Assembly (NCBI RefSeq): GCF_050920415.1
Contig: NZ_CP169309.1
Length of the DNA: 64,000 bases
DNA from: Escherichia coli
GTDB taxonomy: Bacteria > Pseudomonadota > Gammaproteobacteria > Enterobacterales > Enterobacteriaceae
Direction: 5' to 3' (one strand)
The translations under genes and the position numbers were made by a program. This document shows positions 1,772-51,975 of the stretch, one piece after another. Numbering within the stretch: the stretch's first letter is position 1; every line of letters starts with the position of its first letter. The notes beneath the pieces are model-generated. The model was not told the DNA's origin. It did not search any database and saw only the letters and a list, made by a program, of their open reading frames with translations.

Positions 1772-3925
1772 ATGCTAAGTCCTTTGCTCAAACGCTATAC
1801 CTGGAACAGCGCCTGGCTGTATTACGCGCGTATTTTTATTGCGCTTTGTGGAACCACAGCGTTTCCGTGGTGGCTGGGTGATGTAAAACTGACGATTCCG
1901 CTGACGCTGGGGATGGTGGCAGCGGCGCTGACAGATCTCGATGACCGGCTGGCGGGACGTTTGCGTAACCTCATCATTACGCTGTTCTGCTTTTTTATCG
2001 CCTCGGCCTCAGTAGAATTGCTGTTTCCCTGGCCCTGGCTATTTGCAATTGGTTTAACGCTCTCTACCAGCGGCTTCATTTTGCTCGGCGGTCTGGGTCA
2101 ACGCTATGCAACAATTGCCTTCGGTGCGTTACTGATCGCCATTTACACTATGTTGGGGACGTCACTGTATGAGCACTGGTATCAGCAGCCGATGTATCTG
2201 CTGGCCGGTGCCGTCTGGTACAACGTCCTGACACTTATTGGTCATCTACTGTTCCCGGTCCGCCCGCTGCAGGACAACCTGGCGCGTTGCTATGAACAAC
2301 TGGCGCGTTACCTTGAGCTCAAGTCACGCATGTTTGATCCTGATATTGAAGATGAAAGCCAGGCACCGCTGTACGATTTGGCTCTCGCCAACGGTCAGCT
2401 GATGGCGACATTGAATCAGACGAAACTCTCGCTGCTGACCCGCTTACGTGGCGATCGTGGTCAACGGGGAACGCGTCGCACGCTGCATTATTACTTTGTC
2501 GCGCAGGATATTCACGAGCGTGCCAGCTCTTCTCATATTCAGTATCAAACATTGCGTGAACATTTTCGCCACAGCGACGTGCTGTTCCGTTTTCAGCGAC
2601 TGATGTCGATGCAGGGCCAGGCGTGCCAGCAACTGTCACGCTGTATTTTGCTGCGTCAGCCTTATCAACATGATCCGCATTTTGAGCGCGCTTTTACGCA
2701 TATTGATGCTGCGCTAGAGCGGATGCGCGATAACGGCGCGCCTGCCGATTTACTCAAAACACTGGGATTTTTGCTGAACAATTTACGCGCTATTGATGCC
2801 CAACTGGCAACAATTGAATCAGAACAGGCCCAGGCACTGCCCCATAATAATGACGAAAATGAGCTCGCTGATGACAGCCCGCACGGATTGAGTGATATCT
2901 GGCTGCGTCTTAGCCGTCACTTCACACCGGAATCCGCCCTCTTCCGTCATGCGGTAAGAATGTCGCTGGTGTTGTGCTTCGGCTACGCCATCATTCAGAT
3001 AACCGGAATGCATCACGGGTATTGGATCTTGCTGACAAGTTTGTTTGTCTGCCAGCCAAACTATAACGCCACGCGCCACCGCCTGAAGTTAAGGATTATT
3101 GGTACGCTGGTAGGTATCGCCATTGGCATTCCTGTGCTGTGGTTTGTGCCGTCACTGGAAGGGCAGCTGGTGCTGCTGGTTATTACCGGCGTGCTCTTTT
3201 TTGCCTTCCGTAACGTGCAATATGCCCATGCAACGATGTTCATCACACTTTTGGTGCTACTTTGTTTTAACTTGCTGGGTGAAGGTTTCGAAGTGGCGTT
3301 ACCTCGCGTAATCGATACGCTGATTGGTTGTGCCATTGCGTGGGCGGCGGTGAGCTACATCTGGCCTGACTGGAAGTTTCGCAATCTGCCGCGCATGCTC
3401 GAACGTGCCACCGAGGCCAACTGTCGCTATCTCGATGCCATACTGGAGCAATACCATCAGGGGCGTGATAACCGTCTGGCGTATCGTATTGCCCGCCGCG
3501 ATGCACACAACCGTGATGCTGAACTGGCGTCGGTGGTATCAAATATGTCCAGCGAGCCGAACGTTACCCCGCAAATTCGCGAGGCCGCGTTTCGGTTGCT
3601 GTGCCTTAACCATACGTTTACCAGCTATATCTCAGCCCTCGGTGCTCACCGGGAGCAGTTAACTAATCCTGAAATTCTGGCGTTTCTTGATGACGCAGTT
3701 TGCTATGTTGATGACGCGCTACATCATCAACCTGCTGATGAAGAACGCGTCAATCAGGCATTAGCTGACCTGAAACAGCGGATGCAGCAACTTGAACCAC
3801 GGGCAGACAGCAAAGAACCTCTGGTCGTACAACAAGTCGGGTTATTGATTGCATTACTGCCAGAGATTGGTCGTCTGCAACGCCAGATTACTCAAGTTCC
3901 GCAGGAAACTCCTGTTTCGGCGTAA
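1772..3925 (+). CDS. yccS: putative transporter YccS (FUSC-like inner membrane protein)
   Basis: 720-aa ORF from 1763; second ATG at 1772 gives the 717-aa form I recall (MLSPLLKRYTW...); 18 bp downstream of yccF. Confidence 0.85.
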   Translation: MLSPLLKRYTWNSAWLYYARIFIALCGTTAFPWWLGDVKLTIPLTLGMVAAALTDLDDRLAGRLRNLIITLFCFFIASASVELLFPWPWLFAIGLTLSTSGFILLGGLGQRYATIAFGALLIAIYTMLGTSLYEHWYQQPMYLLAGAVWYNVLTLIGHLLFPVRPLQDNLARCYEQLARYLELKSRMFDPDIEDESQAPLYDLALANGQLMATLNQTKLSLLTRLRGDRGQRGTRRTLHYYFVAQDIHERASSSHIQYQTLREHFRHSDVLFRFQRLMSMQGQACQQLSRCILLRQPYQHDPHFERAFTHIDAALERMRDNGAPADLLKTLGFLLNNLRAIDAQLATIESEQAQALPHNNDENELADDSPHGLSDIWLRLSRHFTPESALFRHAVRMSLVLCFGYAIIQITGMHHGYWILLTSLFVCQPNYNATRHRLKLRIIGTLVGIAIGIPVLWFVPSLEGQLVLLVITGVLFFAFRNVQYAHATMFITLLVLLCFNLLGEGFEVALPRVIDTLIGCAIAWAAVSYIWPDWKFRNLPRMLERATEANCRYLDAILEQYHQGRDNRLAYRIARRDAHNRDAELASVVSNMSSEPNVTPQIREAAFRLLCLNHTFTSYISALGAHREQLTNPEILAFLDDAVCYVDDALHHQPADEERVNQALADLKQRMQQLEPRADSKEPLVVQQVGLLIALLPEIGRLQRQITQVPQETPVSA

Positions 3926-4517
3926 GAGAGTCAGCCCATTCTGCAAGCTCCTGGCGGCGTGCCACCGGGAGCGCAGCTTCATGAATGCCGATAATGGCCC
4001 CTTCAAGCATAAACAGAATCTTTTCTGTCACCAGACTGTTTTGCTGCCGCAGTCGCAACCAACACATTTTTGCCCCAAGTATACGTAACGCCCGTACATC
4101 CTTAATCCCCACCTCCCCGAGTATCGCTTCCAGATGAAAAGACATATTGGGCAAATCTTTCAGTCTTTCCCGGGTATTGCGCGTGCTTTTCTCTTTCAGC
4201 GCTGCATCGAGAGAATATTTCGACAGACGCACCAGCTTCAGTTGATTTCGCCATAGACTTTCATCAACCCGATAGTAATTGAGGGTAACGGATCGGCCAC
4301 ACTTTTTATATGTCAGCCAGACAGGCGGATGTTTTACACAGTACTGTGCACTTTGCTCACAAGCCCGAAGATACAACTCACCATCAGAAACCATCGCAAA
4401 CACCGTGTCGTCAACGGTCAGGCTGTAACTACCAAACAATGATCGGTATTCAATTGTGCCCAACGTTGCCAGGTATTCTTGTGATTTATAGATCCGCTTA
4501 TAGGAGAGGCTTTTCAT
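3888..4517 (-). CDS. sxy: competence regulator Sxy/TfoX
   Basis: 209-aa ORF (MKSLSYKRIYKSQEYLATLGTIEYRSLFG...) recognised as Sxy; 3' end overlaps 3' end of yccS. Confidence 0.9.
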   Translation of the reverse strand: MKSLSYKRIYKSQEYLATLGTIEYRSLFGSYSLTVDDTVFAMVSDGELYLRACEQSAQYCVKHPPVWLTYKKCGRSVTLNYYRVDESLWRNQLKLVRLSKYSLDAALKEKSTRNTRERLKDLPNMSFHLEAILGEVGIKDVRALRILGAKMCWLRLRQQNSLVTEKILFMLEGAIIGIHEAALPVARRQELAEWADSLTPKQEFPAELE

Positions 4518-4693
4518 AAAATTCCTTTTAAAATCATAACATAAAAGAATGATTCACATTAACGGATCCGTTAACTACGAAAATAGGCAACTTATTCTTA
4601 AGGGGCAAGATTAATTTATGTTTTCCCGTCACTAACGACAAAATTTGCGAGGCTCTTTCCGAAAATAGGGTTGATCTTTGTCGTCACTGGATG

Positions 4694-4713
4694 TACTGTA
4701 CATCCATACAGTA
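4694..4713 (+). promoter_or_regulatory. LexA operator (SOS box) of sulA
   Basis: tactgtacatccatacagta: CTGT-N8-ACAG palindrome 23 bp upstream of the sulA ATG. Confidence 0.85.
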
Positions 4714-4735
4714 ACTCACAGGGGCTGGATTGATT

Positions 4736-5245
4736 ATGTACACTTCAGGCTATGCACATCGTTCTTCGTCGTTCTCATCCGCAGCAAGTAAAATTGCGCG
4801 TGTCTCTACGGAAAACACTACAGCCGGGCTTATCAGTGAAGTTGTCTATCGCGAAGATCAGCCCATGATGACGCAACTTCTACTGTTGCCATTGTTACAG
4901 CAACTCGGTCAGCAATCGCGCTGGCAACTCTGGTTAACACCGCAACAAAAACTGAGTCGGGAATGGGTACAGGCATCTGGGCTACCCTTAACGAAAGTGA
5001 TGCAGATTAGCCAGCTCTCCCCTTGCCACACTGTGGAGTCAATGGTTCGCGCTTTACGCACGGGCAATTACAGTGTGGTGATCGGTTGGTTGGCAGATGA
5101 TTTGACTGAAGAAGAGCATGCTGAACTTGTTGATGCGGCAAATGAAGGTAACGCTATGGGGTTTATTATGCGTCCGGTAAGCGCATCCTCTCACGCAACG
5201 AGACAACTTTCCGGGCTAAAAATTCACTCTAATTTGTATCATTAA
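4736..5245 (+). CDS. sulA: SOS cell-division inhibitor SulA
   Basis: ORF track starts at a TTG (4730); ATG at 4736 gives 169-aa [13 protein letters not shown]..., recognised as SulA. Confidence 0.9.
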
Positions 5246-5433
5246 GTAAATTTAGGAGTAATCCTGGAACTTTTTTTGTCGCCCAGCCAATGCTTTCAGT
5301 CGTGACTAATATTCCTTGCGAAGTCTTGTCTGAAGCGGTTTCCGCGATTTTCCTCTGTAAATTGCCGCTGACAAAAAAGATTAAACATACCTTATACAAG
5401 ACTTTTTTTTCATATGCCTGACGGAGTTCACAC

Positions 5434-5601
5434 TTGTAAGTTTTCAACTACGTTGTAGACTTTACATCGCCAGGGGTGCTCGGCATAAGCCGAAGATATC
5501 GGTAGAGTTAATATTGAGCAGATCCCCCGGTGAAGGATTTAACCGTGTTATCTCGTTGGAGATATTCATGGCGTATTTTGGATGATAACGAGGCGCAAAA
5601 A
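5434..5601 (+). promoter_or_regulatory. ompA promoter and 133-nt 5' UTR (Hfq/sRNA and RNase E target region)
   Basis: candidate -35 ttgtaa (5434-5439) and -10 tagact (5456-5461); leader beginning gccaggggtgctcggcataagccg at 5469 matches the ompA leader as I recall it. Confidence 0.65.
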
Positions 5602-51193: not shown

Positions 51194-51975
51194 ACTTTAT
51201 CCTTGCTCTGCGGTTTGCGCGCGGTGACATGAATATAACGCCCCAGGGTAATATACGGTTCCTGACGGCAATAACGCGTTTCTAATTCAAGTAATGCTTC
51301 ATAGCAGTCGCGCTGCTGGTGCTTCTCGCGCAGGTAATCATGAAACACGCGAACGCCGGTCTTACCCATAATTTGCCAACCAGCTTCTTCCAGCCACAGA
51401 TAAACCTGCGCCGGGTCGCGTGGATAATCTGGCGAAAGCGTCCGTTTTTTCTTTTTCGGCATTCCCGCCTGCACGTAATCAAAATTCCCGGCGACCATGT
51501 TATGCATCAGCAAGCCGTGCGCATTGTAGAACATTAACGACAACACACCGCCTGGACGTAACACTGACCACAGGGTCTGCAATACGCTGCGGGGATCGGC
51601 CACCCACTCGAGCACCGCATGGAACAATATCAGATCAACGGGCGTTTCCAAATGCGAAGCAACATCCTGAGCGGCGCAATGTATAAATTGCATGTTGTCG
51701 CTCACACCTTTTGCTTCTGCCGCCTGTTTTGCGCGGTCGATCATCTGCGCTGAAAGATCGCATAAAATGACCTGATGCCCACGCTCGGCCATTTTGATTG
51801 CGGTCTGCCCTTCTCCACCGCCAGCATCCAGCACACGCAGTTTTTGCGAGCCCATTTCCGCCAGCACGCGATCGAGATCCTGCCACAGAATAGCCTGTCG
51901 AAGCTGCCCTTTGGTGGTGCCGTAAATGTTACGGGAAAACTTTTCCGCAATATCATCAAAATTGCGATCCTGCAT
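51190..51975 (-). CDS. cmoM: SAM-dependent tRNA methyltransferase CmoM (SmtA)
   Basis: 261 aa from [13 protein letters not shown]...; LDAGGGEG methyltransferase motif; 4-bp overlap with mukF. Confidence 0.9.

Follow-up and report, generated by a model that had tools for sequence, protein, structure and literature searches.

The closest precedents for this locus come from the SOS response and from the control of competence regulators. Self-cleavage of LexA after DNA damage derepresses sulA, as is well established for the SOS response, and at uvrA-ssb a single LexA box has been proposed to repress both of two divergent genes. Links between DNA damage and competence have been reported in some other bacteria. 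The E. coli sxy promoter is said to have been described, with a CRP-S site, by Jaskolska and Gerdes in 2015. In Haemophilus influenzae and Vibrio, sxy/tfoX belongs to the same regulator family and its transcription is likewise CRP-dependent, but these genes have canonical CRP sites, and their translation is restricted by structure in the 5'UTR, whereas E. coli sxy has a CRP-S site and a 55-nt leader without significant structure.

In the stretch of E. coli DNA analysed here (64,000 nucleotides, hereafter the window), sxy and sulA are divergent neighbours, and the region between them had been predicted to form one regulatory island shared by both genes. Our analysis suggests a different organization: the spacer very probably consists of two independent sigma-70 promoters placed back to back, each with an operator of its own, a CRP-S site for sxy and a LexA box for sulA. 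In this work, we located the elements, established that the box is unique in the window and determined how the elements are conserved and spaced; the transcription start sites, the LexA dependence of sulA and the dependence of the sxy promoter on Sxy and CRP were taken from the literature. The operators, promoters and regulatory circuits are already known for E. coli K-12, and the window carries the same sequence. This work therefore corrects the one-island picture to one of two modules and adds a CRP-S site that had been overlooked.

The sxy-sulA spacer and its two promoters

The gene order at the locus is yccS (+), sxy (-), sulA (+), ompA (+), matP (-) and ycbZ (+). The sxy (tfoX) gene, which encodes the 209-aa co-activator of the CRP-S regulon, occupies 3888-4517 on the minus strand with its ATG at 4517, and the sulA gene, which encodes the 169-aa SOS cell-division inhibitor, occupies 4736-5245 on the plus strand with its ATG at 4736. 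Both coding regions were taken from the list of open reading frames and from the RefSeq annotation of the identical E. coli locus, and the Pfam domains TfoX_N/TfoX_C and SulA were found in the sxy homologues and in the orthologous loci, respectively. The spacer thus spans 4518-4735 (218 bp), exactly as originally predicted. A 451-bp query across it was 100% identical to many E. coli chromosomes, where the flanking genes are annotated as sxy and sulA, and was found in all but one of the complete E. coli genomes (5425 of 5426); the window belongs to the core chromosome of this species. Only two of the 218 bases differ from MG1655 (4633 and 4682), both of them outside the operators, and the spacer is AT-rich, with a G+C content of 36% compared with 51% for the window. 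From sxy to sulA, its elements are the sxy leader, the core of the sxy promoter (Psxy), the CRP-S site, the -35 element of the sulA promoter (PsulA), the LexA box together with the sulA -10 element and +1, and the sulA leader. A scan of 3800-5600 with Rfam gave only matches at chance level. Other proteins have been reported to bind in this region: clones obtained by genomic SELEX with RcdA (YbjK) mapped to the sulA-sxy spacer, RcdA left a footprint within the sulA reading frame in vitro, and the sulA mRNA was unchanged in an rcdA mutant; H-NS is flagged for the spacer in the table of the RpoD SELEX study (Shimada 2014).

PsulA is composed of TTGATC at 4671-4676 on the plus strand (-35 to -30), a 17-bp spacer, TACTGT at 4694-4699 and a start site at 4706, from which a 30-nt leader (4706-4735) extends to the sulA ATG. 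The start site, converted to window positions via MG1655 like that of sxy, is coordinate 1020172 with a 30-nt leader in one study (Kim 2012) and 1020173, 1 nt away, by differential RNA-seq in another (Romero 2014), and the -35 element was assigned from the sequence upstream of this start site and from its conservation. The LexA operator (SOS box), TACTGTACATCCATACAGTA, is located at 4694-4713 and covers the sulA -10 element and +1, extending from -12 to +8 of sulA. Of its 20 positions, 17 agree with the idealised palindrome TACTGTATATATATACAGTA, and it has the invariant CTG-N10-CAG of the 20-bp LexA-box pattern TACTG(TA)5CAGTA. This is the sole LexA-like match in the 64 kb, and no such match arose in any of 100 dinucleotide-preserving shuffles. 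The stricter core CTGT-N8-ACAG was also found only at 4694-4713 within the window; taken alone, such a core is not improbable, with 0.69 matches expected by chance and at least one match in 54 of 100 shuffles. The original prediction was therefore accurate about the operator on the sulA side and its position. Its description of the box as near-perfect is slightly generous, since the box has a heterology index of 5.4 and approximately ten classical boxes score better in a 2024 compilation, which places it about eleventh among them (PMC11228462).

The overlap of the box with the core promoter and +1 is the arrangement expected of a LexA-repressed promoter, and for sulA a 20-fold induction by AZT has been reported, which depended 15-fold on LexA cleavage, being lower by this factor in lexA3 (PMC11228462). 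From this geometry we infer that a LexA dimer bound at 4694-4713 would repress PsulA by excluding RNA polymerase from the region between -12 and +8. DNA damage stimulates LexA self-cleavage through RecA, which results in derepression and synthesis of SulA. The LexA box is also overlapped in its left half by a 19-bp perfect palindrome, TGGATGTAC-T-GTACATCCA, at 4688-4706; E. coli alone has this palindrome intact, its symmetry being broken in Citrobacter and in other Escherichia.

On the opposite strand, Psxy is composed of TTGCCC (4608 to 4603, -36 to -31), which lies inside the invariant block GGGGCAAGAT, a 17-bp spacer, TATTTT (4585 to 4580, -13 to -8) and a start site at the A at 4572, followed by a 55-nt leader (4518-4572). 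The start site was mapped at coordinate 1020306 of U00096.2 with a 55-nt leader (Kim 2012), and at the same position by differential RNA-seq (Romero 2014); the start-site lists from Cappable-seq and from Shigella contain no entry here. Binding of RpoD holoenzyme within the spacer was detected by SELEX, and the sxy promoter predicted from it was TTGCCC-17-TATTTT (Shimada 2014), so that the -10 element is supported by the sequence anchored at the start site, by this prediction and by conservation. Conservation alone had already led us to this sxy promoter before the start-site data were found, and both approaches agreed. A simple sigma-70 scan of 4400-4850 called no promoter, because PsulA and Psxy each score 7-8 out of 12 and the cut-off was 9. 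The start sites at 4572 (-) and 4706 (+) agree with the expectation that transcription leaves the spacer leftward into sxy and rightward into sulA, and they are 134 bp apart.

A conflicting 5' end of the sxy transcript has been reported at a G located 115 bp upstream of the ATG, which corresponds to position 4632 of the window (Sinha & Redfield 2012). This position falls in the least conserved segment of the spacer, where hexamers are not recognisable, and it is regarded here as a minor or processed end. With 4632 as the main start, the CRP-S centre would move to -21.5 and the LexA box to -62 to -81; the conflict between the 55-nt and the 115-nt leader thus bears on the presumed mode of action of the CRP-S site. 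A structured leader like that of H. influenzae was not detected, as the fold of the 85-nt 5' region of sxy (z = -1.45) was not significant.

Several further sequence features surround the sxy promoter. A 16-bp perfect palindrome, TTAACGGATCCGTTAA, is located at 4559-4574 (-2 to +14 of sxy), and its core, GGATCCGTTA, with a GATC Dam site in it, has been conserved throughout Enterobacteriaceae; this conservation suggests a candidate operator or a signal in the initial transcribed region. The direct repeat CGAAAATAGG occurs at 4578-4587, over the sxy -10 element, and at 4660-4669, over the distal half of the CRP-S site, and AGGGGCAAGATTAATT at 4601-4616, at the sxy -35 element, resembles AGGGGCTGGATTGATT at 4720-4735, in the ribosome-binding region of sulA. 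The members of both pairs lie in conserved blocks, and both similarities are possibly due to chance. An open reading frame of five codons following AGGGGCAAGATTAATTTATG (4618) was dropped, as it is not conserved in the alignment.

The CRP-S site that was missing from the original prediction is the published control element of sxy. It is 22 bp long (4643-4664), separates the two core promoters and ends 6 bp short of the sulA -35 element, with its centre at -81.5 relative to the sxy start and at -52.5 relative to that of sulA. Its core, TGCGA-N6-TTCCG (TGCGAGGCTCTTTCCG at 4646-4661), consists of the half-sites that were described for the sxy promoter, with the TGCGA half proximal to the promoter (Sondberg et al. 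2019, PMC6728893). It shows the features of a CRP-S site, namely a CRP-type site in which one half is TGCGA (C at position 6) and the other is degenerate, placed upstream of a sigma-70 core. Reporter variants have shown that both halves are needed for Sxy-dependent activation, that Psxy reporters require Sxy, crp and cyaA, that half-site swaps behave as expected and that a reversed site still functions at Psxy (Sondberg et al. 2019, PMC6728893). According to these reports, Psxy is a weak sigma-70 promoter that cAMP-CRP and Sxy activate at the CRP-S site, resulting in positive autoregulation of sxy.

The helical face on which the CRP-S site lies is called activating here on the model of class I CRP promoters. 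Its centre is one base off the canonical class I position of -82.5, and the position at -81.5, together with the invariant spacing described below, suggests class-I-type activation of Psxy. A canonical CRP site in the spacer was ruled out, as at least three mismatches to TGTGA-N6-TCACA are present everywhere. A second exact TGCGA-N6-TTCCG was found at 51845-51860 on the minus strand, inside a long open reading frame, and was rejected as a real CRP-S site, since it is at chance level (0.23 expected per window).

Conservation and spacing among Enterobacterales

The locus was compared among 28 Enterobacterales genomes or metagenome-assembled genomes, which included Escherichia, Salmonella, Citrobacter, Intestinirhabdus, Enterobacter, Lelliottia, Tatumella, Rosenbergiella, Chimaeribacter, Yersinia ruckeri, a metagenome genome and Enterobacteriaceae bacterium ESL0689. 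The footprinting alignment contained 21 sequences, that is, the window and 20 loci. In this alignment, discrete and nearly invariant blocks coincide with the promoter and operator elements, and varying segments lie between them. Salmonella and E. fergusonii stood outside the definition of the blocks, and in these two the columns of the elements were 89-92% identical to the window, compared with 56-58% for the other columns of the spacer and 45-47% for the four-fold sites of sulA.

TATTTT or TATGTT is found at the place of the sxy -10 element in 26 of the 28 loci, and TGCGA is kept in 27; the distance between them is exactly 66 bp in 26 of these 27, so that the spacing between sxy and CRP-S is held from Escherichia to Yersinia. 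On the other side, TTGATCTTT is invariant across the 21 sequences, and all 27 sulA-bearing loci have TTGATC, CTG-N10-CAG and a distance of 23 bp from TTGATC to the LexA box. The sole variable distance is the junction between the modules, from TGCGA to TTGATC, which ranges from 24 to 28 bp. Since the distance from the CRP-S site to the sulA -35 element varies by 4 bp and that to the sxy -10 element is fixed, the CRP-S site is phased to sxy. Each operator is thus phased to one promoter, and neither operator lies on both core promoters.

The two modules have also been lost separately. Enterobacteriaceae bacterium ESL0689 has neither sulA nor the LexA box, and a search with tblastn for SulA gave no match even at E <= 1; the gap between ompA and sxy in this genome is 792 bp (1208-2001), and TATTTT and the TGCGA-N6 site remain 66 bp apart. 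Conversely, Rosenbergiella (spacer 1794-2000) has retained TTGATC and the LexA box, and no recognisable CRP-S site was found at the expected place; the single candidate there, TGAGA with one mismatch, is on the other strand and displaced by 8 bp. The independence of the modules is therefore supported by both the comparative spacing and natural deletions. The constant length of the spacer (216-218 bp in 20 loci) was considered as evidence of coupling and rejected, because the spacer between sulA and ompA is equally constant (354-357 bp).

Some additional observations were made on the sequences that were compared. The nucleotide identity to Salmonella is 0.69 for the sxy coding region and 0.78 for the promoter region, which indicates that the coding part evolves faster, and Sxy is as low as 38-47% identical in amino acids within Enterobacterales in loci that have retained the promoter architecture. 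The E. fergusonii locus shows nucleotide identities to the window of 0.69 for sxy, 0.77 for yccS and 0.82 for sulA, a divergence like that of Salmonella or C. koseri, whereas E. albertii is much closer to the window (0.86, 0.85 and 0.91, respectively); the yccS-sxy-sulA stretch of the E. fergusonii assembly is possibly a recombinational replacement. Furthermore, an assembly labelled as the non-enterobacterial Alkalicoccobacillus porphyridii contains a 276-bp contig, covered only about once, that encodes a fragment with 99% protein identity to E. coli Sxy; this is almost certainly contamination.

Possible links between SOS and sxy

It is also conceivable, albeit unlikely, that SOS and sxy are coupled indirectly, either by changes in local negative supercoiling at Psxy when sulA fires strongly after cleavage of LexA or by LexA or sulA transcription blocking leftward antisense transcripts. 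PsulA and Psxy are back to back at a short range of 134 bp, and transcription running leftward, antisense to sulA, has been reported: a start site antisense to sulA lies at window position 5354, in the sulA-ompA spacer (Romero 2014), three minus-strand start sites within the 3' portion of sulA (5192, 5178 and 5157) have been attributed to "sxy" transcription units (Cho 2014), and an antisense transcript that fully covers sulA is on in stationary phase (Conway 2014). This stationary-phase antisense RNA is the isfA of Cole & Honore 1989. No terminator-like site was found by a scan of 4400-4850, the 5' end at 4632 could be the processed end of such a transcript, and any leftward antisense transcript that reaches sxy must cross the LexA box. 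The specific form in which LexA occupancy and/or sulA firing would gate the antisense transcripts from 5354 and from approximately 5157-5192, which would give rise to a long-leader sxy mRNA, with a possible contribution of supercoiling, is quite unlikely. Two data sets place the main 5' end of sxy at the promoter-proximal position 4572, the antisense unit and sxy were handled as separate units (Conway 2014), and the two modules separate freely in evolution. Such antisense transcription may be the sole visible route by which SOS could influence sxy, and, if real, indirect coupling would tie the competence regulon, dormant in E. coli, to the SOS response, a link between DNA damage and competence like those in some other bacteria.

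Control in the reverse direction, in which CRP and Sxy bound at 4643-4664 would also modulate PsulA and thereby link competence to division control, is highly improbable. The site spans -63 to -42 of sulA and directly adjoins TTGATC wherever both are present, prolonged expression of sxy from a high-copy plasmid has been reported to be toxic, and the site still works at Psxy when it is reversed (PMC6728893). However, the variable distance to the sulA -35 element, set against the fixed distance to the sxy -10 element, argues against it, and no report of an effect of Sxy on sulA was found in the literature searched. Productive CRP sites are generally centred at -41.5 and -61.5, and the centre of this site at -52.5 of sulA falls between these positions.

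Least tenable of all is the direct repression of both genes by the single LexA box, which would place sxy in the LexA regulon: no other strong operator is found in the spacer, sxy and sulA lie side by side and diverge in 27 of 28 loci, and sxy is listed as up-regulated in several classes of stress, but the box lies at -122 to -141 of the mapped sxy start, past the activator site, and would not overlap the sxy core promoter even if transcription began at 4632, its distance from the sxy module varies, and that module is intact in ESL0689, where the box is deleted. Looping by means of a second LexA box was ruled out, as no further CTG-N10-CAG with up to one mismatch was found in 4518-4693. In addition, a search of the text and tables of the 2024 lexA3 RNA-seq study (PMC11228462) found no mention of sxy, either as a classical or as a "no-box" LexA-dependent gene. 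Direct action of LexA on sxy is therefore very unlikely, because the box is more than 120 bp upstream, has no partner and belongs to a module that evolves independently of that of sxy. For the shared regulatory island of the original prediction, this means that a divergent control region with a LexA box on the sulA side does exist, whereas functional sharing is made unlikely by the distance between the start sites, by the location of the box relative to the sxy start, by the independent phasing of the modules and by their separate losses; a sxy promoter mapping far from the LexA site is the first of two parts of the observation that had been named in advance as speaking against sharing, the second being a lack of SOS dependence.

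In a meta-analysis of microarrays, sxy was up-regulated in at least three of five stress classes and sulA in all five; this is a possible sign of co-induction, albeit a weak and unspecific one. Both Sxy and SulA have been reported to be substrates of Lon, and what the two share is therefore post-translational control and not an operator.

Compared with the described systems, the sulA half of the locus is the K-12 sulA (sfiA) promoter with its LexA operator. The operator, the hexamers and the start site are identical here, LexA-dependent induction is documented, and nothing of substance differs, as this is the same locus in another strain of E. coli. The sxy half corresponds to the E. coli sxy promoter with CRP-S, whose half-sites and orientation match exactly (Sondberg et al. 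2019); to that description, our analysis adds that the CRP-S centre is at -81.5 of the start site mapped genome-wide, that the spacing is fixed and that the 115-nt leader does not fit this arrangement. As at uvrA-ssb, a LexA box is found between divergent genes, and both uvrA and ssb have a heterology index of 6.2, with ssb induced only 1.5-fold (PMC11228462). Unlike at uvrA-ssb, the box at this locus lies directly over the sulA promoter, and the sxy promoter is more than 120 bp away on the far side of an activator site; sharing of the box by the two genes is therefore not expected.
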